A stretch of 64,000 nucleotides of DNA, from the NCBI GenBank assembly GCA_049324495.1, contig JBMOOP010000058.1, positions 65,275-129,274 of the forward strand, given 5' to 3'. The notes beneath the pieces are model-generated. The model was not told where the DNA came from. It worked only from the letters and a program-made list of their open reading frames with translations, and did not search any database. Positions 9,074-64,000 of this stretch are shown here, piece by piece; within the stretch, counting starts at the first letter, position 1; each line of letters opens with the position of its first letter. The DNA is from Pseudomonadota bacterium (GTDB lineage Bacteria > Pseudomonadota > Gammaproteobacteria > Pseudomonadales > JADFDG01). Position numbers and translations under genes: made by a program.

Positions 9074-9946
9074 TCAGCTGCGCGCTGCGAGTATCCGCAC
9101 AAACGAGTCGCCGCGTGTTTCCGGTATTGCCAGCTGGCCATAGTAATGGCGTGGATTGTGTGCGGTGGCCTGCCGGAAACCGAGTGCATGGAAGTGCGCC
9201 TCCATTTCTTCGTCGCTGCTGAAATGAAAACTGACGTTGCTGCGCGAGGCGGCACCCAGCGTATCGCCGAGTACTTTCAGCAGCAGCCGGAAAGGATGGC
9301 GATTGAGTAGAGGGTAGTTGTCCATCAGATAAATGCCGGCCGGGAATTTTTCCAGCGCACTGTGCAATCTTCCCCAAAAGCCGCTGATCGTTTCAAGGTT
9401 GAAATAATTCACCAGCCCTTCGGTTACCACCAGTAACGGTTTCGTCGTATCAAATTCGCGTGCGATCACATTTTCGAGGCTTTCCGGCCCTTCGACGAGA
9501 ATGTTGCATGTCACCACTTTGTGGCGTGTCGAGAGTGCATTCGCTTCGCGCAGCAGCTCTTTTTTCCGGCGCGCCATGTCGGGCAGGTCGGCTTCGACGT
9601 ATTTCAACTGCGGGAAGCGTTCCGTGAAGCGCCAGCCGCGTGGCGAAAGCCCGCAAGCGATCTCCAGTATCTGGGTGACGCCATCGTGGGTGATCGCCTC
9701 TTCAATGAGATGGTCGATGAGGAAATGGCGCTGTAGCAGGAAGTCCTTGATGTTGCCGCCGACGAGTTGTCGGCCGATGGCTTCGAACGGCCACAGCAGC
9801 GCGAAGTACAGCTCGCCCTGGCGGGTACGGAATGGCGGCGCTGACAGGCCGTTGTGGTACCAGATGTAACCGGTGTAATGCGCGGTGAAGCTGATGCTCG
9901 ACGTATCGGTCTTGTCTTTGCGCAAGAAATTGCGGAACAGGCCCAT
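9074..9946 (-). CDS. Class I SAM-dependent methyltransferase (leucine-carboxyl-MTase-like)
   Basis: ORF 9074..9973 with the start taken at ATG 9946 (MGLFRNFL). It has the motif-I-like block ILEIACGLSPRG followed by YVEADLPDM. Confidence 0.7.
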   Translation of the reverse strand: MGLFRNFLRKDKTDTSSISFTAHYTGYIWYHNGLSAPPFRTRQGELYFALLWPFEAIGRQLVGGNIKDFLLQRHFLIDHLIEEAITHDGVTQILEIACGLSPRGWRFTERFPQLKYVEADLPDMARRKKELLREANALSTRHKVVTCNILVEGPESLENVIAREFDTTKPLLVVTEGLVNYFNLETISGFWGRLHSALEKFPAGIYLMDNYPLLNRHPFRLLLKVLGDTLGAASRSNVSFHFSSDEEMEAHFHALGFRQATAHNPRHYYGQLAIPETRGDSFVRILAARS

Positions 9947-10078
9947 TGCGTGGCACTCCGTGGTTGCGGTCAAGCGTTGCGGTTGAACAATGACGCGTGG
10001 CTATATTGCGGTGCGCTGCGGCCACTGGCAATGTCACTTGTACGCCATACCGGTGTGAGGCAACGACAGGATCAGGCC

Positions 10079-32544: not shown

Positions 32545-34245
32545 ATGAAAATTTCCCGTCAGGCTTATGCCGACATGTTCGGCCCCAACACCGGAGACAA
32601 GGTGCGCCTGGCCGATACCAGTCTGTGGATTGAAGTGGAGCGCGACCACACGATCTACGGCGAAGAAGTGAAATTCGGCGGCGGCAAAGTCATTCGTGAC
32701 GGCATGGGCCAGTCGCAGCAGGTGGCGGCATACGTTGTGGACACCGTCATCACCAACGCGCTGATTGTGGATTGGTGGGGCATCGTCAAGGCCGACATCG
32801 GCATCAAGAACGGCCGTATCGCCGGCATCGGCAAGGCCGGCAATCCGGATATCCAGCCGGGTGTGAGTATCGTGATCGGCGCGGCGACGGAAGTGATTGC
32901 CGGTGAAGGCATGATCATCACTGCCGGCGGCATTGATGCGCACATTCATTTTATTTGCCCGCAGCAAATCGACGAAGCACTGTATTCCGGCATCACCACC
33001 ATGCTCGGTGGCGGCACCGGGCCGGCTACCGGCACCAACGCCACCACCTGCACGCCGGGGCCCTGGCACATCGCGCAAATGCTGCGTGCCGCCGAGGCAT
33101 TTGCGATGAATCTCGGTTTCACTGGCAAGGGCAATGCCAGTTTGCCTGCAGCACTGCGCGAGCAGGTGAGTGCCGGCGCCATCGGCCTGAAGTTGCACGA
33201 GGATTGGGGCACGACGCCAGCGGCGATCGACTGCTGCCTTGGTGTTGCCGACGAGATGGACGTGCAGGTGGCGATCCACACCGACACACTGAACGAATGC
33301 GGGTTTGTCGACGATACGATTGGGGCGTTCAGGGGCCGCACTATTCACACCTATCACACTGAGGGTGCCGGTGGCGGCCACGCTCCGGATATCATCAAGA
33401 TGTGCGGCGAAGCGAATGTGTTGCCAAGTTCCACCAACCCGACGCGGCCATTTACGGTAAATACAATCGACGAACATCTCGACATGCTGATGGTGTGCCA
33501 CCACCTTGATCCGTCAATTGCCGAGGATGTGGCATTTGCCGAGTCGAGAATTCGTCGCGAAACGATAGCGGCAGAAGATATTCTGCACGATCTGGGTGCT
33601 TTCTCCATGATCTCCTCGGACAGCCAGGCCATGGGGCGGGTTGGCGAAGTGATTCTGCGCTGCTGGCAGACGGCAGACAAAATGAAACAACAGCGCGGGC
33701 AACTGCCCGAAGATTCCGCCGGCAACGACAATTTTCGGGTGAAGCGATACATCGCCAAGTACACCATCAATCCAGCGCTGACTCACGGCATTGCTCACGA
33801 AGTCGGTTCGATTGAAGTGGACAAGCTGGCCGATCTGGTGTTGTGGAGACCGGCATTTTTTGGCGTGAAACCGAGCCTGATTGTAAAGGGCGGCTTGATC
33901 GCCGGCGCGTTGATGGGCGATCCGAATGCATCGATCCCGACGCCACAGCCGGTGCACTACCGGCCGATGTTCGGTGCCCATGGTGGCGCGCTGGCGGTAT
34001 CGGCAGTGACTTTTGTCTCGCAGGCCGCGCTTGCCAATGACATTGGCGGGCAACTGGGTTTGCGCAAGCGTCTGGTAGCTGTCAAGGGTTGCCGCAGCAT
34101 TGGCAAGAAGGACATGAAACTCAACGCTGCCACGCCGCGTATCACTGTCGATCCGCAAGACTACCGGGTACACGCCGATGGCAAGTTGCTGTGGTGTGAA
34201 CCGGCAAACGTCTTGCCGCTGGCGCAACGCTATTTCCTCTTTTGA
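32545..34245 (+). CDS. ureC: Urease subunit alpha UreC
   Basis: 566 aa. It contains [14 protein letters not shown], the carbamylated-Lys region [11 protein letters not shown], and MVCHHLD. Confidence 0.97.
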
Positions 34246-53560: not shown

Positions 53561-55051
53561 TCACAGCAGGTAGGTAACCGCCAGCAAGCCGGTCGCCGTC
53601 ATGGTCAAGGCATAAGGCAGTGCCATCCAGAGCATTTTTCCGTATCCCAGTCGAATCAGTGGGGCGAGGCTGGACGTCAGCAGAAACAGGAACGCGGCCT
53701 GGCCGTTCGGCGTCGCGACGCTCGGAATATTCGTGCCGACGTTGATGGCAACAGCCAGCACGTCGAACTGCTCCTGCGTGAGATTTCCGGCGTCGAATGC
53801 GGCCTTGACTTCGCCGATATATATGGTCGCAACAAATACATTGTCGCTGATCGCGGAGAGCGCGCCGCTGGCAAGGTACATCAACGGCACACGCGTCTGG
53901 TCATCCTGCTGCAGTACGTATGCAATCCCCGGTTGGAAAAGATGCTGGTTGTGTATGACGCCAACCACCACGAAGAATGTTGCTAGCAGGGCAGTGAACG
54001 GCAGTGCTTCTTCAAATGCGTGGCCAAGACGCTTCTCTTCTGTGATGCCACACAACGCAGTGGCCAGCACGATGACCCCAAGGCCGATCAGACCGACCTC
54101 CGCCAGGTGCAGGGCAAGGCCGATGAGCAGGAACACAGCCGTGATTGCCTGCAGCCAGAGATGCAGAATTGCCGTGCGTGTGCGGCAGTTGGCCTCGTCG
54201 GAAAAATGACGTTCGATGATATTGCGGACGGCGGGCGGCATGTCGGTGCCGTAACCGAACCAGCGCATCTTGTCGACGGTAACGCAGGTCAGCAGCCCGA
54301 CCGCGAGTACCGGCATGGACACCGGCATGGAGTGCAGGAAAAACTCGATGAAACTCCAGCCGGCGAGATTGCCGATCAGCAGGTTCTGCGGTTCACCCAC
54401 CAGCGTGGCGACACCGCCCAGCGCAGTGCCGATGGCAGAGTGCATCAGCAGCCCGCGCAGGAAAGCCCGAAATTTGTCCAGATCATGTCGGTCCAGATCC
54501 GGCGTGCCGTCGGCATCGAGATCGACACGTGCGGATGCTGCCTGCTGATATACGGCATAGATCCCGGCGGCCACCGTGATGATCACCGCCACAACCGTCA
54601 ACGCATCAAGAAATGCCGACAGCACCGCTGCCGAGGCGCAAAACAGCAGCGACAGCGTAGTGCGCGACCTGACCTTCATCAGAATGCTGCTGAACAGATA
54701 CAGCAACAGGTCGCGCAGGAAATAGATGCCGGCAACCATGAATACCAGCAGCAGGATCACTGACAGGTTGGCACTGATTTCGCGGTAGACGGTTTCGCTG
54801 TCCACCAGCCCGAGCAGCAAGGCCTGCATCGCCAGCAAGCCGCCGGGCTGCAGTGGATAGCATTTCAGCGCAACTGCCAGGGTGAGGATGAATTCAGACA
54901 GCAGCAACCAGCCGGCCACGAAGGGGCCGGCGCTGAACAGAACGAGGGGGTTAATCAAGAGGAAACAGAGAACTGTTGCCTTGTACCAGTTGGGCGAATG
55001 CCCGAGAAACGAGCGGAAAAATACCGATGACCAGAGACGGACGTTGTTCAA
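53561..55051 (-). CDS. nhaB: Na+/H+ antiporter NhaB
   Basis: The 496 aa are collinear with my recollection of E. coli NhaB (FLGHSPNWYKATVLCFLLINPL..., GEPQNLLIG, ATPNGQAAFLFLLTSSLAPLIRLGYGKMLWMALPY). Confidence 0.9.
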   Translation of the reverse strand: MNNVRLWSSVFFRSFLGHSPNWYKATVLCFLLINPLVLFSAGPFVAGWLLLSEFILTLAVALKCYPLQPGGLLAMQALLLGLVDSETVYREISANLSVILLLVFMVAGIYFLRDLLLYLFSSILMKVRSRTTLSLLFCASAAVLSAFLDALTVVAVIITVAAGIYAVYQQAASARVDLDADGTPDLDRHDLDKFRAFLRGLLMHSAIGTALGGVATLVGEPQNLLIGNLAGWSFIEFFLHSMPVSMPVLAVGLLTCVTVDKMRWFGYGTDMPPAVRNIIERHFSDEANCRTRTAILHLWLQAITAVFLLIGLALHLAEVGLIGLGVIVLATALCGITEEKRLGHAFEEALPFTALLATFFVVVGVIHNQHLFQPGIAYVLQQDDQTRVPLMYLASGALSAISDNVFVATIYIGEVKAAFDAGNLTQEQFDVLAVAINVGTNIPSVATPNGQAAFLFLLTSSLAPLIRLGYGKMLWMALPYALTMTATGLLAVTYLL

Positions 55052-55139: not shown

Positions 55140-56039
55140 TCACTGCTGCCGGGGACGCAATGCCTGAAAATCCTGGCGCTCGGCCACGAACGGTGGGCGT
55201 GGAGGTTGGCCGCAATAGGGGGCTTTCGGCAGGTTTTCCGTGCTGTTGTAGACGAAAAACAGGTTGCTGCGCGGCCACGGGCTGATGTTGTTGCCGGAGC
55301 CGTGCAGTGTGTTGCTGTCGAAAACAATCACGGTGCCAGCATGGCCGATTGCGGTGCTGATGCCATCGCCGGCCAGCGACGCGATAAGTGTTTCGTCCGG
55401 GATTCCGACGTGCTGTTCGCGCAATGAGCTGCGAAAGTGGTTCGCCGGCGTGGGCTCGGGGCATGACAGAAACCAGCGATGCGAGCCAGGTACAAGCAGC
55501 AACGGGCCGTTGGCCGGCGTGTTGTCGGTCAGCAGTATCGACATACTGAGGGTGCGCATGGCCGGGATGCCATCCTCTGCATGCCAGGTTTCGAAGTCCG
55601 AGTGCCAGTTGAAGCCGCCGCCGCGAAACGCCGGCTTGTAGTTGATACGTGACTGATGAACATAGACTGCGCTGTCCAGCAGGAACTCGGCGATGTCCAA
55701 CAGGCGGTCGTCGCGCAGCAGGCCGTCGATCACCTTGCTGTGTTGTTGTGGTTGGAACAGTGAACGCAGGTCGTTGCTGTTGCTCTCACGTATTGCTGAA
55801 TCCAGTCCGAGAAGCTTGCGGTCAGCCTGCAGGCGGGCCGCTTCTGCTTGCAGAATCTCGACATCGTGGCCCGAGAGCAGCTCGGGTAGCAGAAGGAATC
55901 CCCGGTCGCGCCACTGGCGGCACTGCAGGGGCGTCAACGGGGCGTTGGCGTGCCAGTCGTGCCAGAGGACCGGCTCTTCGCGGCGCAGCACTGCAGGCTT
56001 GCCGCCATGGCGGGTTGGATAGCGATCGTCAGCGTTCAT
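55140..56039 (-). CDS. ectD: Ectoine hydroxylase EctD
   Basis: 299 aa carrying the EctD signature FNWHSDFETWHAEDGIP (consensus FxWHSDFETWHxEDG[ML]P), a non-heme Fe/2OG dioxygenase. Confidence 0.93.
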   Translation of the reverse strand: MNADDRYPTRHGGKPAVLRREEPVLWHDWHANAPLTPLQCRQWRDRGFLLLPELLSGHDVEILQAEAARLQADRKLLGLDSAIRESNSNDLRSLFQPQQHSKVIDGLLRDDRLLDIAEFLLDSAVYVHQSRINYKPAFRGGGFNWHSDFETWHAEDGIPAMRTLSMSILLTDNTPANGPLLLVPGSHRWFLSCPEPTPANHFRSSLREQHVGIPDETLIASLAGDGISTAIGHAGTVIVFDSNTLHGSGNNISPWPRSNLFFVYNSTENLPKAPYCGQPPRPPFVAERQDFQALRPRQQ

Positions 56040-56054
56040 GTGGAAATCCCGACA

Positions 56055-56672
56055 TCATGCGGAAAAATCCCTTGCGATTATCTCGGCGCCACGCAGAATC
56101 ATCTCGATGGCATAGGTGCCGGTGAACAGCGCAACAATTCGCCCGGTCACTTCGATATAGCCCTGCACCAGTGATTCGTCACGCTTGCGGGCGCTATCCA
56201 GCAGGCGCTTGAACAGAACGATGGCGACGTAGGAGGCGATGAGCGCCGTCGCGACGGCGGCGAGCGCGAGTGGCCACGGTTGCTGGGCCCCGGCAAACAC
56301 GGCGGCACTCACTGTCCCAGGCCCGATCATGAACGGCATCGCAACAGCGCCGGCGAGGTGTGCCGGTGCGCCGCGCGTCTCCAGCAGGGCCAGCGTTCCA
56401 GAAAAGACCGAGCGCACGCCGATCAGCAGGAAGACGATGCCGCCGAAAATCAGGAACGAGGCGAAGCGAACGTTGAAAACTTGCGTAAACAAACGGTCGC
56501 CAAGGACGGCGAAACTGCCGAACACGCCGAACGACACCAGGTGTGCGCGCTGCATCACCAGCGAAAATGTTTGACGATTCAGGTCCCGGATCAGCGCCAT
56601 CAGGTAGATGCTCATCAGGAACGGGTTCAGCAGCAGGAACAGCAGCCATGCCGACTTGACGAACGTCTCCAT
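56055..56672 (-). CDS. MarC/UPF0056-family integral membrane protein
   Basis: 205 aa with six hydrophobic segments and a MarC-type N-terminus (FLLLNPFLMSIYLMAL). It is packed 3 nt after ectC and 15 nt before ectD. Confidence 0.82.
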   Translation of the reverse strand: METFVKSAWLLFLLLNPFLMSIYLMALIRDLNRQTFSLVMQRAHLVSFGVFGSFAVLGDRLFTQVFNVRFASFLIFGGIVFLLIGVRSVFSGTLALLETRGAPAHLAGAVAMPFMIGPGTVSAAVFAGAQQPWPLALAAVATALIASYVAIVLFKRLLDSARKRDESLVQGYIEVTGRIVALFTGTYAIEMILRGAEIIARDFSA

Positions 56673-56675
56673 GCG

Positions 56676-57071
56676 TCAGGACGCCGCTGTGCCGGCGGCC
56701 GGATAGGCGCCTTCCTCGTCGTGCACTTCCTGTCCGGTCAGCGCTGGTGCAAAAACGCAGGCCAGTTCCAGTCCGCTGGTCGCGCGCAGCAGGTGGCGGT
56801 CGTGGTGGTTGAGCAGATACATCGTGCCGGGCGTGATCGGGAACACCTTGCCGTCCGGCAATGTCTCGACTTCGCCCTCACCGCGAATGCAGTACACCGC
56901 CTCGATGTGGTGTTTGTACCAGATCAACGTTTCGGTGCCGGCATGAATGACCGTGATATGGAACGAGAAGCCGGCGCGATCGTCTGCAAGTACCAGCCGG
57001 ACACTTTCCCAGTTTTCGGCAGTGACCCGCCGTTCTGTGCGCCGGGTCTCCGCAAGGGTACGAACGATCAT
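56676..57071 (-). CDS. ectC: L-ectoine synthase EctC
   Basis: 131-aa cupin: [67 protein letters not shown]... Confidence 0.95.
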
Positions 57072-58366
57072 GGACGGAACATCCCTGCCGCGATGCGCAC
57101 CGCGTGCGGACTGCTGCGTTCTCGCTGCGCCATGACGTTGCGCATGAGGATGGCCATGCCACGCTCAAGGTCGTCGTTGGTGATGGTCAACGGGCACAGA
57201 ATCTTCAGCACCTGATCGCGCGCGCCGCTGGTTTCCACGATCAGACCCTGGTCGAAACAGGCGCGGGTGACCGGCATCGTGAACTCCGCGCCGGTGGTAT
57301 GCAGGCCGCGCATCAGGCCGCGGCCTGTTGCGGTAAAGCCGGCACAGCGGTCGGCAAGCTCCTGCAGGCAGTCGCCGACATATTCGCCCTTGCGCCGCAC
57401 TTCAGCGTTGAGCTGGTCGTTCTTCCAGAAGGTCTCGATGGCGCGGGCAGCCGTGACAAACGCAAGGTTGTGCCCGCGGAAGGTGCCGTTGTGCTCACCG
57501 GGCTCCCAGACGTCGAGGCGGGGATCGATCAATACCACGGCCATGGGCAACCCGTACCCGGACAGCGATTTCGACAGAGTGATGATGTCCGGGCGAATGC
57601 CGGCTTCCTCGAAGCTGAAGAAATTTCCGGTGCGTCCGCACCCCGCCTGGATGTCGTCGACGATGAGCAGGACGCTGTGCTTGCGGCATACCCGCTGCAG
57701 ACTGCGCAGCCAGCTTGCCTGCGCTACATTGATGCCACCTTCGCCCTGCACGGTTTCGACGATTACCGCTGCCGGCAGATCAACGCCGCTGGAGGCGTCG
57801 CTCAGCGTCTTGTCCAGATACACAGTTGAATCAATACCTTCTCCAAGGTAGCCGTCGTACGGCATGCGCGTTACGCCGGTAGGATCGACGCCGCCGCCGC
57901 CGCGATGATGCCGGTTGCCGGTGCATGACAGTGCGCCGAGCGTGACTCCGTGAAAGGCATTGGTGAACGCGACGATGTTGCGTCGGCCGGTGGCCTTGCG
58001 CGCGACCTTGAGCGCGGCTTCCACGGCGTTGGTGCCGGTGGGGCCGGTGAACTGCATCACGTACTTGTATCCGCGCGGCATCAGGATGTGTCGCTCGAAC
58101 ACTTCGAGAAAGTGCTGCTTGGCGGCGGTGTGCATGTCGAGGCTGTGCACGACATGGTTCTGGTCGATGTACTCAAGCAGCGCTTCCTTCAAGGCCGGGT
58201 GGTTGTGGCCGTAGTTGAGCGAGCCCGCTCCGGCGAGGAAGTCGATGTAGCTGCGGCCCCTGTTGTCGTGCAGGTGGCTGCCCTGCGCGGTGGTGAATAC
58301 CACCGGAAAAGACCGGCAATAACTGCGCACCGCCGATTCGAGGCGGTCAAAGGTGGTGGTTTGCAT
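57068..58366 (-). CDS. ectB: Diaminobutyrate--2-oxoglutarate transaminase EctB
   Basis: 432-aa class-III aminotransferase with an EctB-type N-terminus ([29 protein letters not shown]...) and the PLP-Lys region [10 protein letters not shown]. It overlaps ectC by 4 nt. Confidence 0.95.
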
Positions 58367-58409
58367 GAAGTTTCTCCCTTGGATAGCAGAGTGGCCTGGC
58401 TGGGCCGGT

Positions 58410-59471
58410 TCAGGCGCCTGGTCTGGCCTCCTGTTCCGGTGCCGGGTTCTGGTTGGTGGTACCGTCCGCGGAAGTGAACGGACCGACTTGCAGCAGCCAT
58501 TCGGAGTCGTGGCTGCCTTTGAGGTGGCGCTGGCGATCGAACAATAACTGGCGGCTGAGTGCCGCCTGGCGTGATCGGGCCAGCGCCGCGAACAGCGCGG
58601 CGGATGCCGTGTTGTCCAGGGTCACGGTGGTTTCGAGCTGGCACACATGCGCGCAGGCGTCGCGCGCGAGCAGGTTGTCGAGCATGCGTTGTGCAAGCCC
58701 GCGTCCCCGCTGGCTGGGGTGCACGGCAACCTGCCAGATAAACAGGGTGTTGTTGCGATTCGGCAACAGGTACCCGGATATGAAGCCCACGACCTGGTTG
58801 CCGCTCGTGGCGACCACGCAGGTGTCACGGAAGTGGGTGCACTGCAGCAGGTTTGCGTACAGCGAGTTCTGGTCCAGCGGCGGGCAGATGCGGATCAGCG
58901 CATGGACATGTGTTCCGTCATCAACCGTTGGCGCACGCAACTGGACATCATTGTCGGCGGCGCTTGTGGTGTTGATCGGAACCGGCGAGCGGCGCGGGAA
59001 TTGTTCAGGAATATTGCCGAGGGTGAGCATCGGCGCCGCATCAATGTCGCCGGCCCCCATCATCGTGGCTACATGCTGCAGGGAATCCACGATCCGGTCG
59101 CGTTGAGCCGGGGTCAGTTGCTCGAACCGGGCCTGGAAGTCTGCCTGCAGAGGCGTCGGCGAACCTTCCAGTAATCGGCTTCCTGCTTCCGTGAGCGCCA
59201 CGTTGACCACGCGTTTGTCCTGGCTGCCACGGCTGCGGACGACGAGCTCACGCTCTTCCAGGCGGTCAAGGATGGTGGTGACGGTGGCCTGCGAAAGGCT
59301 GACCTGACTGGTCAGGAACCCCAAGGTGGCGCCCGGGTGCGCCGCGATAGCACGCATCAGTACGCTTTGGGGAATGGTCAGCCCGGCGGTGCGGCTGAGG
59401 CGCTTCGAGTTCTGGTCGGTGGCCCGGATGATCCGTCGCAGGGCCACCAGCACTTGGTCCTGGTGGGGCAT
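58410..59471 (-). CDS. ectA: In-frame fusion of a MarR-family (EctR-like) regulator and diaminobutyrate acetyltransferase EctA
   Basis: aa 1-136 form a MarR wHTH domain ([18 protein letters not shown]...[17 protein letters not shown]). aa ~176-335 match EctA ([30 protein letters not shown]...[17 protein letters not shown]...). There is no stop codon or frame change between the two parts. Confidence 0.85.
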
Positions 59472-59954
59472 GGGGGAAGACCTTATGTTTCGAGGTCGAC
59501 ATAATCCCCAACTAATAGTTCGATGTCAAAGTATATGCCTGCTCAGAGCGGCCGGCTGTGGGCCGCGAGCAAGGGAGACGCATTTATGGGGGGCTTTGCC
59601 TGCCATGTTCAAGGATCCCCAGAAGGCAGCACGAGACCTTCTGTCCACCGATGCCTGCGGCCTCACGCCGCGCCCACCGTCGTCGATGCAGATCGCGCCC
59701 GCAAATTGCCGGCAGAAATACTGGTCTTGTACCGGATCAAAGGGCAGCTTCGTACAGCAGCGGAACTCGCCGGCGGTACACATGGCATTGCGACGATCAC
59801 GACATCCTCCTGGCCAACCGTAGCGAGTTGGAGCAATCCGGCAGTCGTGCACTGGCGGTGAAACTGCTGCCCAGGCTCGTCGACCAGCCAATGGCCAGCT
59901 ACAGTGGTGCGCGGATGGCGGTCGAGGCCGGGGAGGACGATCTACGTGGGCGAG

Positions 59955-60563
59955 ATGCAGCAAGCGGGCGCGGCAGGCAATGACCTGTTGCGAGACAACG
60001 CGTTTCTCGGAGCGCTGCGCGCGCAGATGGTGCGTTTTGCGACGCTCCAGTTGAATGACCGCAACCTCGCCGAGGACGCCGTGCAGGACGCACTCGCTGC
60101 CGCGCTGCGCAATGCGGGTTCGTTTGCAGGACGCTCCGCGTTGAAAACCTGGGTATTCGCCATCCTCAAGAACAAGATCATCGATGTCATCCGCCAGCGC
60201 AGCCGCATCGTCTACACGGGCAGCCTGATCGGGGAGGACGAGGACGGGGATTCCACGCCGGCTCTTTTTGATCAGCGCGGGCACTGGAAGCCCGAGGAGA
60301 AGCCGGCGGACTGGGGTGTGCCCGATCTCGCGCTGCACGACGAGCAATTCTGGCGCGTGTTCGAGACCTGCCTCGATGGCCTGCCGGCGCGTCAGGGGCG
60401 CGTGTTCATGATGCGTGAGTTCGTGGGGCTGGAGGCTGATGAGATCTGCACGGCGGCCGGGATATCGACGAGCAATCTGCACGTACTGCTGCATCGTGCG
60501 CGCCTGCGCTTGCGTGAGTGCCTGGAAAACAAGTGGTTCGACGGGGGGTGTGAAACATGCTGA
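59955..60563 (+). CDS. ECF-type sigma-70 family sigma factor
   Basis: ATG 59955. Region 2 (DAVQDALAAALRNAGSFAGRSALKTWVFAILKNKIID) and region 4 (LPARQGRVFMMREFVGLEADEICTAAGISTSNLHVLLHRARLRLR) are both present. Confidence 0.88.
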   Translation: MQQAGAAGNDLLRDNAFLGALRAQMVRFATLQLNDRNLAEDAVQDALAAALRNAGSFAGRSALKTWVFAILKNKIIDVIRQRSRIVYTGSLIGEDEDGDSTPALFDQRGHWKPEEKPADWGVPDLALHDEQFWRVFETCLDGLPARQGRVFMMREFVGLEADEICTAAGISTSNLHVLLHRARLRLRECLENKWFDGGCETC

Positions 60564-60760
60564 GCTGCGAAGAGGCAACCCGCTTCATGTCGGATGCCAT
60601 GGAGAGGCCGCTTACCGTCAGGGATCGCCTGTCGCTCAATGTGCACCTGGTGATGTGCAAGGGCTGCCGGACTTTCAGTCACCAGGTGCAGGGTTTGCGC
60701 CAGATAGCGCGCGAATACGCGCAGGGTCGCGGCGATCCGAAGGACGACGGGTCAGCCTGA
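60557..60760 (+). CDS. Small zf-HC2 (ZAS) anti-sigma factor, no TM segment
   Basis: 67 aa, overlapping the sigma gene stop by 7 nt. It has the HxxxCxxC motif (HLVMCKGC). Confidence 0.75.
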   Translation: MLSCEEATRFMSDAMERPLTVRDRLSLNVHLVMCKGCRTFSHQVQGLRQIAREYAQGRGDPKDDGSA

Positions 60761-61366
60761 GCGTCCTGCCGCCCGCGCCAGCCACCAGTCCGCGCTCACG
60801 TAGCGCCCGCCACCGATAAAAAACAGCGCCAGCAGCATCACGAAGTAGGTCGCGGCGAACTCGATGCCGTTGTTCAGCACGACAAAATTGCCGCTGCTGG
60901 TCAGCCAGTCGTAGTTGCCGTGCTCCTGCAGAATCTCTTTCGCGCGGTCGAGTTTCTCCACCGCTTCGAGCACGCGCTCGTTCGCAAACGGTGCGCCCGG
61001 ATCGGCGATGGCCTGCCAGCCGTTCTCCAGGTGCACGGCCGTCGCTGCGACCAACATCGTCACCATCAGCGGAATCGCGATCCAGCGCGTGGCCAGCCCG
61101 AGCGCCAGCAGCACGGCACCGACGAGCTCGGTGGACGTGGCGAGGAACGCCATCAGCCAGGGAAACGGCAGGCCGAGGCCCCAGTCCGGGTTGCCGAACC
61201 AGGCCACGGTACTTTCGAAGTCGGCGAGCTTGTGGGTGCCGGCCATCCAGAGCACCGGCACGAGGAACAGGCGCAGCGCCAGCGGCGCCAGGCCGTCGAG
61301 ATGGCGCAGCGGGCGCATGACGGCGTCGTGGATGCGGAAATACAAAGTGGTGGCGCGCTGGAACAT
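60752..61366 (-). CDS. DoxX-family inner-membrane protein (long form)
   Basis: ATG 61366 after GGAGA. It has DoxX-type helices (LRLFLVPVLWMAGTHK..., STELVGAVLLALGLATRW) plus a soluble insert ...GNYDWLTSSGNFVVLNNGIEF. It is divergent from the EGKCG peptide gene. Confidence 0.85.
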   Translation of the reverse strand: MFQRATTLYFRIHDAVMRPLRHLDGLAPLALRLFLVPVLWMAGTHKLADFESTVAWFGNPDWGLGLPFPWLMAFLATSTELVGAVLLALGLATRWIAIPLMVTMLVAATAVHLENGWQAIADPGAPFANERVLEAVEKLDRAKEILQEHGNYDWLTSSGNFVVLNNGIEFAATYFVMLLALFFIGGGRYVSADWWLARAAGRSG

Positions 61367-61528: not shown

Positions 61529-61897
61529 ATGCGTCCGATTTCCCGTCTCTCGTCCCTCGCCGGTGCGTCCGTCGTAGCTGCCCTGGCCCTGCCGATGGCG
61601 GCCCACGCCGCGAGCAACCCGTTCCATGCCGTCGACATCGCCGGCTACCAGGTCGCCGAAGCGGATGCTGCCAAGCCGGAAGGCAAGTGCGGTGAAGGCA
61701 AGTGCGGCGCGAAGAAGAAGGCTGAGCAGGAAGCCAAGACAGCCGAAGGCAAGTGCGGCGAAGGCAAGTGCGGTGGCGACAAGGCCGCCGAAGGCAAAGC
61801 CGCCGAAGGCAAGTGCGGCGCGAAGAAGAAGGCTGAGCAGGAAGCCAAGGCAGCCGAAGGTAAGTGCGGCGAAGGCAAGTGCGGCGGCAAGAAGTGA
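61529..61897 (+). CDS. Secreted EGKCG-repeat peptide; putative MNIO-type copper-binding RiPP precursor (HvfA/bufferin-like)
   Basis: ATG 61529 after AAGGA. The signal peptide ends AHA/AS, then NPFHAVDIAGYQVAEA, then seven EGKCG motifs in a Lys/Glu/Ala-rich 72-aa tail. Total length is 122 aa. Confidence 0.85.
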   Translation: MRPISRLSSLAGASVVAALALPMAAHAASNPFHAVDIAGYQVAEADAAKPEGKCGEGKCGAKKKAEQEAKTAEGKCGEGKCGGDKAAEGKAAEGKCGAKKKAEQEAKAAEGKCGEGKCGGKK

Positions 61898-61924: not shown

Positions 61925-62057
61925 ATGTCGGGGGTTTCGGGTGCCGGGCTTGGCCAGCGCCGCGATGGACGATCTGGCGACCCTTCCGTCGCCGCTCGTC
62001 GCGCCCGATTTCCTCGATGTGGCGCCGGAGAACGGGATCGGCAGCTGCAGTTCGTAA
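61925..62057 (+). pseudogene. Frameshifted 5' stub of a DUF692/MNIO-type maturase gene
   Basis: A strong RBS (GAGGAGGGG) and ATG 61925 lie 28 nt after the peptide stop. MSGVSGAGLGQRR is read in one frame, then AMDDLATLPSPLVAPDFLDVAPENGIG in the +1 frame, ending at TAA 62055-62057. This resembles the DUF692 N-terminus (GLGLR...EvapENw). No further homologous sequence follows before csoR. Confidence 0.5.
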
Positions 62058-62130
62058 ATGCCGAGCTGGCAGAGGCCGATTGCGCGCTGCTGAGGGCAAC
62101 GCCGGCCGCCGTCAGGGAATCCTTGGCGGC

Positions 62131-63499: not shown

Positions 63500-63829
63500 T
63501 CAGCCGTCGCCGGATTCGTTCATCCACGCCGGTATGTCGCGCTCGCCATGCAGGACGCGCCAGACGTCAACGTGATCCGCGTTCTCGACGTAGAAAACCA
63601 GGTACGGAAATTTCGCGAGCGGCCAACTGCGCAGGCCCGGCAGGTTCACCTCGTGCGCATACCGGCTGGAGCCACTCGCGGGATGGCGACCGATGTGACC
63701 ATAGGCTTTTTCCAGCGCCGCGATGAAATCAAGGGCGGCCTGTTCGGCTCCCTCGTTCAGGTACCACGCGATGGCATCGTCCACATCCCGGTTGGCTTGC
63801 TCCCGGGGAACGACGGGCTTGCGGGTCAC
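63500..63829 (-). CDS. parE: ParE/RelE-family type II toxin
   Basis: 109 aa (VDDAIAWYLNEGAEQAALDFIAALEKAYGHIGRHPASGS...FPYLVFYVENADHVDVWRVLHGERD). The GTG start overlaps the antitoxin stop (GTGA). Confidence 0.88.
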   Translation of the reverse strand: MTRKPVVPREQANRDVDDAIAWYLNEGAEQAALDFIAALEKAYGHIGRHPASGSSRYAHEVNLPGLRSWPLAKFPYLVFYVENADHVDVWRVLHGERDIPAWMNESGDG

Positions 63830-64000
63830 CGACGCTTTGTCGCCGTCGGGCGGAGCCGGTCAAGCAGCCCCTGGAAGTAGTCCGCGTCAGCGGGCGCGGC
63901 AGGTGCGGATGCAGCCCCTGCCAGCAGCAGGTTGCGCAGCTTCAGGCGGTCCTGGTCCTTGCGGATCAGCTCGCGCACGTACTCGCTGCTGGTGCCGTAT
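63826..64000 (-). CDS. parD: ParD-type RHH antitoxin (3' part; 5' end outside window)
   Basis: The minus-strand translation ...YGTSSEYVRELIRKDQDRLKLRNLLLAGAASAPAAPADADYFQGLLDRLRPTATKRR* has the typical ParD C-terminal region. Confidence 0.8.
   Translation of the reverse strand, partial: YGTSSEYVRELIRKDQDRLKLRNLLLAGAASAPAAPADADYFQGLLDRLRPTATKRR

Follow-up and report, generated by a model that had tools for sequence, protein, structure and literature searches.

Can the first gene of an ectoine operon encode both the repressor of that operon and one of its enzymes in a single polypeptide, and do the two halves then work alone or together? Ectoine synthesis is one of the commonest ways in which bacteria withstand salt stress, and ectoine is also an industrial product. 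The only dedicated regulator of its synthesis is EctR/CosR, a repressor without an established signal (PMC5924519, PMC13342039, 10.1101/845297). In the 64-kb window, the whole stretch of DNA analysed here, a MarR domain of the EctR type and the acetyltransferase EctA share one gene (Table 1). Comparison with related loci leads us to favor, as the probable explanation, a bifunctional, self-repressing EctR-EctA protein with largely independent domains, which would have arisen by loss of a stop codon in a co-directional ancestor.

Reading frame and domains of the fused protein

The fused ORF begins with ATG, and the open reading frame listing gave no stop or frame change within it. MarR and EctA had been proposed in a sequence-only reading to share one uninterrupted 353-aa frame; the ORF listing, Pfam, and NCBIfam all agree with this. 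Pfam placed MarR (PF01047) at aa 31-89 (E=1e-14, 54.5 bits, cut-off 24.6) and GNAT at aa 210-295. NCBIfam TIGR02406, the EctA equivalog, matched aa 178-333 over positions 1-157 of its 157-position model, scoring 202.3 bits against a cut-off of 120.6. AlphaFold2 predicted two folded domains, with helices at aa 3-137 and strands and helices at aa 176-329, and low confidence for aa 142-172 between them. The MarR part was given helix/wing topology at aa 3-137 with pLDDT of 72-93 (10-residue blocks), and MarR structures in the PDB were matched by the N-terminal domain.

The C-terminal domain is, by sequence and modeled fold, a bona fide EctA. PDB 3d3s matched it with E=3e-46 (phmmer), and Foldseek aligned it to the EctA structures 3d3s and 6sll with TM (target) of 0.86-0.90 and rmsd of 2.2-2.8 Å. 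Over the aligned model, it shares 52% identity with Bordetella parapertussis EctA, and it keeps 26 of 27 family-conserved columns, defined as at least 90% conserved among 183 stand-alone EctAs; only aa 317 departs, with F->L. That the family residues and the fold are conserved suggests that this part would be an active EctA acetylating L-2,4-diaminobutyrate. Like the EctA family (TIGR02406; PDB 3D3S, 6SK1, 6SLL), it passes the equivalog cut-off, adopts the same predicted fold, and is encoded with ectB and ectC directly downstream on the same strand. Unlike stand-alone EctA (~170-200 aa), it lacks its own start codon and ribosome-binding site and carries a 177-residue N-terminal extension that is a predicted transcription factor.

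The N-terminal domain is a predicted orthologue of the ect-cluster MarR regulator. Its identity is 50-57% to ect-linked and stand-alone MarRs, 55-58% to MarRs co-directional with ectA, and 50-53% to MarRs divergent beside ectA (46 loci), with which it also has a tail motif in common. In a neighbor-joining (NJ) tree, the fused EctR domain falls within ect-linked MarR sequences. It resembles EctR1 of Methylotuvimicrobium (Methylomicrobium) alcaliphilum 20Z, EctR of Methylophaga, and CosR of Vibrio in its MarR winged helix and tight ect linkage. This kinship rests on gammaproteobacterial ect-linked MarR orthologues (50-57% identity, common tail); the 120 matches listed for the EctR domain did not include EctR1.

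A linker of ~40 aa had been described between the domains. This segment does join them, but aa 142-158 form a conserved EctR tail and only ~20 aa (158-177) are variable. Across 24 aligned fused proteins, tail columns A145, P147, L149, T150, L151, G152, and E156 are invariant or nearly so, and the 'IDA[AS]PVLD' tail also occurs in stand-alone divergent EctRs. The tail is predicted by AlphaFold2 to be disordered. With this family tail included, the N-terminal part would constitute a complete EctR/CosR-type MarR repressor. Pairwise dN/dS among the fused genes was 0.04-0.25 for the MarR domain and 0.17-0.27 for the EctA domain, ratios that indicate that purifying selection acts on both. The tail gave 0.04-0.12 in six of seven pairs, the seventh being a near-identical pair without non-synonymous change, and the spacer gave 0.3-1.3, which is about neutral.

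A MarC family gene within an ect operon was confined to loci of the fused clade and one other locus (L033). EctA had been called the first pathway enzyme. Its gene does come first in the operon, but the enzyme catalyzes the second step of the pathway, and EctB makes its substrate (PMC6915088). The side chain of lysine is chemically akin to that substrate, diaminobutyrate.

Table 1. Features of the fused gene, its operon, and its upstream region (positions in the window)
Feature	Position	Strand	Evidence or remark
ectR::ectA fused gene	58410..59471	-	353 aa, ~39 kDa (predicted); operon gene 1; one ORF, MarR + GNAT/EctA
EctR-type MarR winged-helix domain, aa 1-141	59049..59471	-	Pfam MarR, AlphaFold2, identity to MarRs, dN/dS
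Conserved EctR-family C-terminal tail, aa 142-158	58998..59048	-	Conserved columns, dN/dS, motif in stand-alone EctRs
Variable spacer, aa 159-177	58941..58997	-	Length drift in frame, dN/dS
EctA (L-2,4-diaminobutyrate N-gamma-acetyltransferase) domain, aa 178-333	58473..58940	-	TIGR02406, PDB 3d3s, Foldseek
Low-complexity C-terminal tail (aa 334-353) and stop codon	58410..58472	-	pLDDT <50; dN/dS >1 in most pairs; variable in alignment
ectB (diaminobutyrate-2-oxoglutarate transaminase)	57068..58366	-	TIGR02407, 638 bits vs cut-off 552
ectC (ectoine synthase)	56676..57071	-	PF06339 E=6e-58; NF009806 193 bits
MarC/NAAT-family membrane protein, within operon	56055..56672	-	PF01914 E=1e-13
ectD (ectoine hydroxylase-like)	55140..56039	-	TIGR02408 314.6 bits, slightly under cut-off 336.5; PhyH domain
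Predicted sigma-70-type promoter TTGACA-17-GATTAT	59501..59529	-	10/12 consensus matches
O1, candidate operator-like pseudo-palindrome TACTTTGA-CA-TCGAACTA over -35 box	59516..59533	-	Matrix, conservation
O2, candidate operator-like pseudo-palindrome TATGTCGA-CC-TCGAAACA over predicted -10/+1	59486..59503	-	Matrix, conservation

Distribution and origin of the fusion

Twenty-four aligned protein clusters, with identities of 38-97%, contain the fusion, and the architecture is present in clusters P0001-P0022, P0024, P0121, and P0122. Comparison of orthologous ect loci, which the sequence-only reading had proposed, found it conserved in 12 independently assembled loci, where it heads an ectB-ectC-marC-ectD operon at identities down to 52%. 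All fused sequences derive from metagenomes or MAGs, and the fusion occurs in a group of uncultured, salt-adapting proteobacteria. The architecture is rare, with ~4-5 fused clusters (50% identity) among 1,291 strong matches in 1.84 billion representatives. This general rarity is the one point that speaks for an assembly or sequencing artefact, or for a recent pseudogene-like accident in one genome, a reading to which we assign a negligible probability. The same frame-continuous fusion recurs in independent assemblies from NCBI, JGI, ENA, and Logan (52-97% identity) and both of its halves are under purifying selection; these comparative data refute an artefact or pseudogene. The fusion is a natural, evolutionarily stable protein in which a repressor is welded to a pathway enzyme.

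Public records name the fused proteins only 'diaminobutyrate acetyltransferase' (MFZ5698377.1, JGI names), which leaves an annotation gap. No described EctR-EctA fusion was found in the searchable literature, in which 'fused' referred to unrelated cases such as GMT/DMT methyltransferases (PMC7824335).

Among 106 ectA loci, a MarR gene was divergent in 46, co-directional but separate in 23, and fused in 13, and 24 had no nearby MarR. These counts bear out the earlier statement that ectR is normally a separate gene, usually divergent. Co-directional ectR-TGA-N4-6-ATG-ectA junctions exist, in which stop and start are just 4-6 nt apart. This arrangement is the likely precursor of the fusion, as judged from the junction structure and the promoter box common to both. 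The stop codon and start site would have been lost in an ancestor whose ectR immediately preceded a co-oriented ectA, a gene order that persists in Alcanivorax-like operons with their 4-6 nt gap. Divergent, co-directional, and fused loci would then be surviving stages of a likely path to the fusion. A direct sister relationship of the co-directional and fused clades was not shown by the NJ trees. The main fused clade (20 taxa) was monophyletic for the EctR domain with an NJ bootstrap of 100/100, and its monophyly was weak for the EctA domain (31/100). At least three or four separate lineages carry an EctR-EctA fusion, namely the main clade, P0122/L114, P0121, and P0024, which have unrelated linkers and different operon types; the P0122/L114 fusion is accompanied by an Ehu-like transporter.

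Promoter and candidate operators

TTGACA-17-GATTAT was the only match to a sigma-70-type promoter within 58300-59950, and alignment with relatives showed no variation in TTTGAC or in the TAT of the -10 box. No known RNA element was found in the leader with Rfam. Two operator-like pseudo-palindromes, O1 and O2, overlap the promoter. Scored with a matrix trained solely on 9 distant fused loci, O2 was the best match in the 64-kb window (24.8 bits, other strand 18.2) and O1 the second best (23.4 bits, other strand 19.2). O1 is conserved in 12 fused loci, and the O1-O2 core spacing is 30-31 bp in 12 of 12. A third match at 9406..9387 was set aside as a chance hit and not counted as a further regulon site, because it lies inside a SAM-methyltransferase ORF.

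The inverted repeat TTATGT-N10-ACATAA had been picked as a candidate operator. It is present in the right place, at 59504..59483 (- strand), where it forms the outer part of the O2 palindrome, but its outer arms are not the conserved core. That core is the inner T-Y-G-N4-C-G/T-A-A palindrome. The arms are already missing in a relative with 97% protein identity. L001/L018 and L109 do not keep them, the inner core being conserved instead, and we rejected the arms as the conserved operator.

The published EctR1 operator is A/T-rich and pseudo-palindromic, has two 8-bp half-sites separated by 2 bp, and overlaps a -10 box (PMC5924519). By sequence, the candidate sites O1 and O2 fit the 8-bp half-site, 2-bp gap geometry and the promoter position of EctR1-type operators, and O2 resembles the EctR1 operator as a candidate 8-2-8 pseudo-palindrome, A/T-rich, that covers the -10 box of an ect promoter. 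Canonical ectR/ectA intergenic regions carry TA[TC]AAT-G-[TC]TTAG-N4-CTAA, which has the same layout of -10 hexamer, G, and palindrome as O2; in these loci, the layout of a -10 box followed by a palindrome is 6-fold enriched in the intergenic region. The promoters of co-directional ectR-ectA operons carry TTACTTTGACATCTAAATAT, which is nearly identical to the window's O1. Unlike EctR1/CosR, most fused loci have the half-site core TCG/CGA in place of the canonical TAG/CTA, and there are two candidate sites 30 bp apart, one at -35 and one at -10/+1.

From this layout, a dimer of the EctR domain would bind O1 and O2 in its own promoter and, when bound, would repress the ectRA-ectB-ectC-marC-ectD operon. 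Whereas EctR1/CosR are encoded by a separate gene that usually has its own divergent promoter, the fused EctR makes up the N-terminal half of the polypeptide that also contains EctA, and its coding sequence would be transcribed from the ect promoter itself. One promoter, two candidate operators, and one protein would thus form a compact self-regulating module.

The conservation of the boxes could instead reflect a role as promoter or leader elements or binding by another factor. A reading of this kind holds that the MarR domain is no longer a DNA-binding repressor and serves EctA as a dimerization or regulatory appendage, the boxes belonging to another regulator. The boxes do overlap in part with ordinary -35 and -10 elements. 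However, they are palindromic and score on both strands, and their layout matches that of canonical ectR-linked promoters. The winged-helix region is also the most conserved part of the fused protein, with L59, S60, T63, I67, D69, R70, L71, R79, R81, D85, and R87 invariant and dN/dS down to 0.04. We consider loss of DNA binding very unlikely.

Independent or communicating halves

Another question is whether the ORF yields one protein or two. EctA and/or EctR could be freed by internal initiation or by proteolysis within the spacer, which is predicted to be disordered and may be accessible to proteases. Internal Met codons at nt 59063 (M137), 59060 (M138), and 59030 (M148) had been noted as lacking a Shine-Dalgarno sequence; their positions were correct, and no Shine-Dalgarno-like sequence precedes the internal starts in the window, where anti-SD duplexes reached -1.7 kcal/mol or weaker. 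We scanned 12 fused loci for in-frame ATG, GTG, and TTG codons in a stretch reaching from 45 codons ahead of the EctA start to 8 codons past it, and calculated anti-SD duplex energies. In the window and in L001, L109, and L030, the EctA domain opens with a TTG codon (L178), which would suit internal initiation. However, across the 12 loci there was no positionally conserved internal start codon or Shine-Dalgarno site, and the best energy (-7.1, L110) lay within the last MarR helix. The fused gene's own Shine-Dalgarno is weak (AAGG). If EctA had a start of its own, the spacer could accumulate frameshifts or stops, yet none was seen in 24 fused clusters. The spacer varies from 8 to 22 aa between PEQ and LRxP, with 10 different lengths across the fused proteins, and it is in frame every time. 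On the scan of the 12 loci, a separate internal start for EctA was rejected, and release of two proteins from the ORF appears very unlikely.

The favored reading, a single self-repressing protein, has the short, unstructured, freely evolving spacer join two domains that probably work largely alone. EctA would be translatable solely within the fusion, and the arrangement would therefore be locked in. A single polypeptide would make autoregulation obligatory and fix repressor and enzyme at 1:1. The repressor would then be as abundant as the enzyme, so the EctR signal would have to switch off DNA binding for expression under salt stress; the fusion imposes the constraint that the repressor domain stay switchable at enzyme-level abundance. 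This is also a point against the favored reading. A repressor at the level of a biosynthetic enzyme is awkward unless DNA binding is strongly signal-dependent, and it might suggest crosstalk between the domains.

The fusion also raises the hypothesis of EctA-EctR communication, in which EctA is the sensor of EctR. Ligand binding, turnover, or oligomerization driven by EctA would change DNA binding, and pathway demand would set transcription, by analogy with PutA, BirA, NadR, and RbkR. Diaminobutyrate, acetyl-CoA, CoA, and N-gamma-acetyl-diaminobutyrate are the proposed ligands. The sequence-only reading had likewise suggested autoregulation coupled to substrate or product, or titration of the repressor as the enzyme oligomerizes, consequences that are speculative. 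Several observations make this attractive. No fewer than three or four separate lineages carry the EctR-EctA fusion, and their linkers are unrelated, although recurrence is expected by chance too where the genes are 4-6 nt apart. The signal of EctR/CosR is not established (PMC5924519), and modeling of CosR gave no ligand pocket (10.1101/845297). A 1:1 stoichiometry would suit a built-in switch, and in RbkR the co-substrate of the kinase, CTP, improves DNA binding (PMC5397151). The conserved tail at aa 142-158 sits between the domains under strong purifying selection; however, its motif is also present in stand-alone EctRs and is therefore not a fusion-specific interface. The AlphaFold2 model of the fused protein contains no confident inter-domain packing (pTM 0.48), and a spacer that is unstructured, neutral, and variable in length is typical of passive tethering. 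On balance, EctA as the sensor of its own EctR domain seems unlikely. If the domains prove independent, this is a tidy but ordinary gene fusion.

The same idea can be extended to separately encoded proteins, since the natural EctR-EctA fusion recurs. Occupancy of EctA by diaminobutyrate or acetyl-CoA, or acetylation of an EctR lysine, might be the input that releases separate EctR/CosR from ect promoters too. We regard this as a doubtful, speculative extension; if true, it would answer what EctR/CosR senses.

Like the trigger enzymes PutA, BirA, NadR, and archaeal RbkR (PMC5397151), the fused protein unites in one polypeptide a DNA-binding domain and an enzyme of the pathway that it is predicted to control, and it is predicted to regulate itself. 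In the trigger enzymes, DNA binding is demonstrably controlled by substrate or product, whereas the flexible, neutral spacer of EctR-EctA argues for loose tethering. Unlike them, EctR-EctA has a full MarR dimerization-plus-wHTH module whose free-living orthologue represses on its own. The fusion is a modest variation on enzyme-repressor fusions already known.

Generic MarR-GNAT proteins with the same domain order are entered in NCBI as 'bifunctional helix-turn-helix transcriptional regulator/GNAT family N-acetyltransferase'. To our knowledge, they are mostly uncharacterized and their GNAT domains are not EctA. The fused protein differs from them in that both of its halves are predicted orthologues of well-defined, separately encoded partners of one pathway, and in that unfused co-directional ectR-ectA operons, the likely ancestral form, are still extant.

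One reading frame for EctR and EctA

The sequence-only reading had proposed that an EctR-like MarR domain runs without interruption into EctA (L-2,4-diaminobutyrate N-gamma-acetyltransferase), and the reading frame upheld this. In a single ORF of 353 codons with an ATG start, Pfam assigns aa 31-89 to MarR (E=1e-14) and aa 210-295 to GNAT, and TIGR02406, the NCBIfam EctA equivalog, matched over its full length at aa 178-333 (score 202 bits, cut-off 120.6). Neither domain occurs a second time in the window. AlphaFold2, given an alignment of 24 homologues, predicted two domains that fold well (means of 72-93 over 10-residue blocks), with low confidence for aa 142-172 between them and a disordered tail at aa 334-353. 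The C-terminal domain superposed on two solved structures of EctA, 3D3S and 6SLL, at TM values of 0.86-0.90. In 183 stand-alone EctAs, 27 alignment columns reach a conservation of at least 90%, and this domain retains 26 of them. By every testable feature, the C-terminal half is a member of the already known EctA family. The fused gene is followed on the same strand by ectB, ectC, a MarC-family membrane gene and ectD. EctA had been called the first pathway enzyme; it is the product of the first gene but catalyzes the second reaction, which PMC6915088 places after that of EctB.

The N-terminal half was compared by tblastn (residues 1-145) with loci collected by EctA similarity. Among the relatives whose ectA stands alone, the nearest (Oleiphilaceae, Cellvibrio, Oceanobacter, Spongiibacteraceae and many metagenomic contigs) carry a MarR gene of 50-53% identity directly upstream on the opposite strand. 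This divergent order is the canonical arrangement, as described for M. alcaliphilum (PMC5924519; 10.1101/845297). These stand-alone MarR proteins end in the motif MMDAQHIDASPVLD, which is shared by residues 137-150 of the fusion, and the closest free-standing relatives among the matches listed are Alcanivorax and Marinobacter MarR proteins (55-57% identity). Fold, linkage and orthology point to an EctR with predicted repressor function. The C terminus of EctRs extends past the MarR fold as a conserved tail, M-M-x-A-x-x-I-D-A-[AS]-P-[IV]-L, which is under strong purifying selection yet predicted to be disordered. Because this tail is common to stand-alone EctRs, much of the ~40-aa linker described earlier is EctR tail, and only ~20 residues form a true spacer.

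The MarR-plus-GNAT architecture was recovered by protein search in clusters P0001-P0022 and P0024, proteins 331-372 aa long at 38-97% identity, drawn from assemblies at NCBI, JGI, ENA and Logan. Every fused sequence comes from an uncultured organism, under record titles such as 'Gammaproteobacteria bacterium', 'Pseudomonadota bacterium' and one partial 'Polyangiaceae', and public records label the proteins only 'diaminobutyrate acetyltransferase'. On DNA, the frame was unbroken in 13 loci and in 12 extracted genes; ectB and ectC follow in every sufficiently long contig, usually with marC and ectD. The fusion is real and is kept in relatives' ect loci, and an artefactual ORF is poorly supported.

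Selection was estimated by the Nei-Gojobori method in seven pairs. The dN/dS ratio was 0.04-0.25 for the MarR domain, for which an inert role is poorly supported, and 0.17-0.27 for EctA (0.5 in the near-identical pair). The EctR tail gave 0.04-0.12 in six pairs, and the seventh, near-identical pair had no non-synonymous change. The spacer, at 0.3-1.3, is therefore free to drift in sequence; it occurs in ten lengths of 8-22 residues and is never interrupted or frameshifted. Production of EctA as a separate protein is likewise poorly supported: no in-frame start codon near the EctA N-terminus has a conserved position, and every candidate start in the window lacks an upstream Shine-Dalgarno-like sequence. 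The internal Met codons, for which this lack had been noted, are located as first described.

Features of the window discussed in the text
Feature	Position	Strand	Remarks
Fused ectR-ectA gene	58410..59471	-	353 codons
EctR-family tail	58998-59048	-	aa 142-158; also in stand-alone EctRs of relatives' loci L003-L014
Sigma-70-like promoter	59529..59501		TTGACA-17-GATTAT
Candidate operator O1	59533..59516		TACTTTGA-CA-TCGAACTA; over -35; 8-2-8 pseudo-palindrome, 6/8 symmetric positions
Candidate operator O2	59503..59486		TATGTCGA-CC-TCGAAACA; over -10 and expected +1; 8-2-8 pseudo-palindrome, 6/8 symmetric positions
Promoter region	59472-59562		compared with L018 5628-5721
Palindrome TATTTCAACCTTGAAACGAT	9387-9406		16.3 bits
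SAM-dependent methyltransferase ORF	9074-9973	-
MarC/NAAT-family gene	56055-56672	-	between ectC and ectD
EctD-like hydroxylase	55140-56039	-	314.6 bits; TIGR02408 equivalog cut-off 336.5
NhaB Na+/H+ antiporter gene	53561-55051	-	88 nt past ectD
ECF sigma/anti-sigma pair	59904-60760	+
HvfX/DoxX gene	60752-61366	-
HvfA-type precursor	61529-61897	+	KCGExKCG repeats; NF050137
Putative Hvf deletion junction	about 62042-62080
ParD/ParE-like pair	63500-63978	-	~4 kb from ect operon
5_ureB_sRNA Rfam match	32691-32977	-	123.7 bits; gathering score 40

Promoter and candidate operators

The region 58300-59950 contains a single sigma-70-like promoter. In the upstream alignment of 12 fused loci, TTTGAC is invariant, the -10 element ends in TAT, and a pair of boxes sharing the core C-[GT]-A-A is always spaced 30-31 bp apart; in the window these boxes are the candidate operators O1 and O2. 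A weight matrix trained only on nine more distant fused loci ranked O2 first (24.8 bits) and O1 second (23.4 bits) over both strands of the 64-kb window, with their reverse strands third and fourth, as expected of palindromes. The next match was a near-perfect palindrome that probably arose by chance, since it lies inside the methyltransferase ORF.

Where ectR and ectA are divergent in the canonical way, the promoter nearer ectA has the sequence TA[TC]AAT-G-[TC]TTAG-N4-CTAA[AT]. Palindromes of this kind show a six-fold enrichment in the intergenic DNA between ectR and ectA (1.97 vs 0.32 per kb). These promoters and O2 have in common the order of -10 hexamer, G and palindrome. The operator of EctR1 is A/T-rich, with two 8-bp half-sites separated by 2 bp and overlapping the -10 element, and the candidate O2 agrees in geometry and position with this published description (PMC5924519). 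The inverted repeat TTATGT-N10-ACATAA, correctly located in the sequence-only reading and proposed there as a candidate operator, is the outer part of O2 with a one-base offset. Its arms are lost even in a relative of 97% protein identity, but the inner TCG…CGA core is kept.

We infer that the fused protein would bind O1 and O2. With reasonable support, a dimeric EctR repressor would sit on both sites and shut down its own operon, and the C-terminal half would be an active EctA. Obligatory autoregulation and a repressor:enzyme output of 1:1 follow from the anatomy, so that high expression under salt stress would need signal-driven loss of DNA binding rather than dilution of the repressor.

The promoter region is far more diverged from that of L018, the ect locus of the closest relative, than is the flanking DNA; identity over the operon block as a whole is 96%, and 1 of 145 residues differs in the EctR domain. 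The boxes of the window resemble those of the more distant relatives L002 and L029, and together these features suggest recombination or fast turnover at the operator.

Locus arrangements and recurrence of the fusion

Among 106 ectA loci, a sample biased by the manner of collection, ectR and ectA were divergent in 46, co-directional but separate in 23 and fused in 13, and 24 had no MarR gene nearby. An EctR-type MarR was present in 19 of the 23 co-directional loci, which cluster with Alloalcanivorax dieselolei P0268; here the ectR stop TGA is followed by the ectA start 4-6 nt on (e.g., L091 4538-4548). The promoters of these operons contain TTACTTTGACATCTAAATAT, near-identical to O1, the box that covers the -35 element in the window. 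This Alcanivorax-like arrangement looks like a pre-fusion state, in which a small indel at the junction would join both genes. Marine loci of this type were L055, L065, L076, L078-L080, L084, L085, L088, L090, L091, L098-L103 and L105, and in this group a TTGACATCTAAAT promoter box is followed by a long leader of ~150 nt. The four remaining co-directional loci (L031-L033 and L073) encode a different MarR of 142 aa without the IDAxP tail, ~110-140 nt before ectA, with a strong AAGGAGAAAGCATG ribosome-binding site in the gap; it probably represents a distinct regulator family.

In trees built by neighbour-joining only, the main clade of fused proteins (20 taxa, with identities as low as 52%) was monophyletic, with bootstrap values of 100/100 on the EctR domain and only 31/100 on the EctA domain. 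Three fused proteins fall outside it: P0122 (384 aa, with ectBCD and an Ehu-like ABC transporter downstream), P0121 (363 aa) and P0024. Their longer, unrelated linkers suggest, but do not prove, that fusion took place independently several times. When 1.84 billion cluster representatives were searched exhaustively with an HMM, 1,291 matches had E<1e-30, and the fused architecture made up only ~4-5 clusters among them at 50% identity. The fusion is uncommon, yet it recurs. With no start of its own for ectA, any stop in the spacer would abolish EctA, and the persistence of the fusion alone is therefore no proof that coupling is advantageous.

MarR-GNAT is a known domain order, and enzyme-repressor fusions are already known as a kind. 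No account of an EctR-EctA fusion was found in full-text searches, in the ect phylogenomic surveys PMC5924519 (2018) and PMC13342039 (2026), in the work on CosR (10.1101/845297) or in PMC7824335, a survey of phototrophs that uses 'fused' for GMT/DMT. Trigger enzymes such as PutA, BirA, NadR and RbkR (PMC5397151) offer precedents for a coupled protein, in which the EctA domain would provide the signal to EctR. The recurrence of the fusion and the still-unsolved nature of the EctR/CosR signal leave room for such coupling, but two independent domains are favoured by the spacer, which is unstructured, varies in length and evolves neutrally, and by the lack of contacts between the domains in the prediction. 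The main value of the fusion is as a ready-made experimental handle on what EctR/CosR senses.

Neighbouring genes

By tblastn of the collected loci, the MarC gene was confined to 13 distinct fused-clade operons and L033; the 46 divergent and the 19 Alcanivorax-type co-directional loci all lack it. The ect surveys searched make no mention of it; its product may transport ectoine or a pathway intermediate. The EctD-like hydroxylase scored slightly below its equivalog cut-off. The NhaB gene, also adjacent in L018-L021 and L110, is separated from ectD by a gap with no terminator-like site and may be co-transcribed with the ect genes.

On the other side of the fused gene lie the ECF sigma/anti-sigma pair, the HvfX/DoxX gene and a RiPP metallophore precursor of the HvfA type. 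L018 has the maturase genes HvfB (MbnB-like) and HvfC (792-2416), which the window lacks; this looks like a deletion of ~1.5 kb in the window. The ParD/ParE-like toxin-antitoxin pair has a counterpart of 77% identity in L018 (4658-5220), where it sits immediately between the gene for the sigma factor and the fused gene, a local rearrangement. Farther away, the 5_ureB_sRNA match implies a urease gene cluster in the window.
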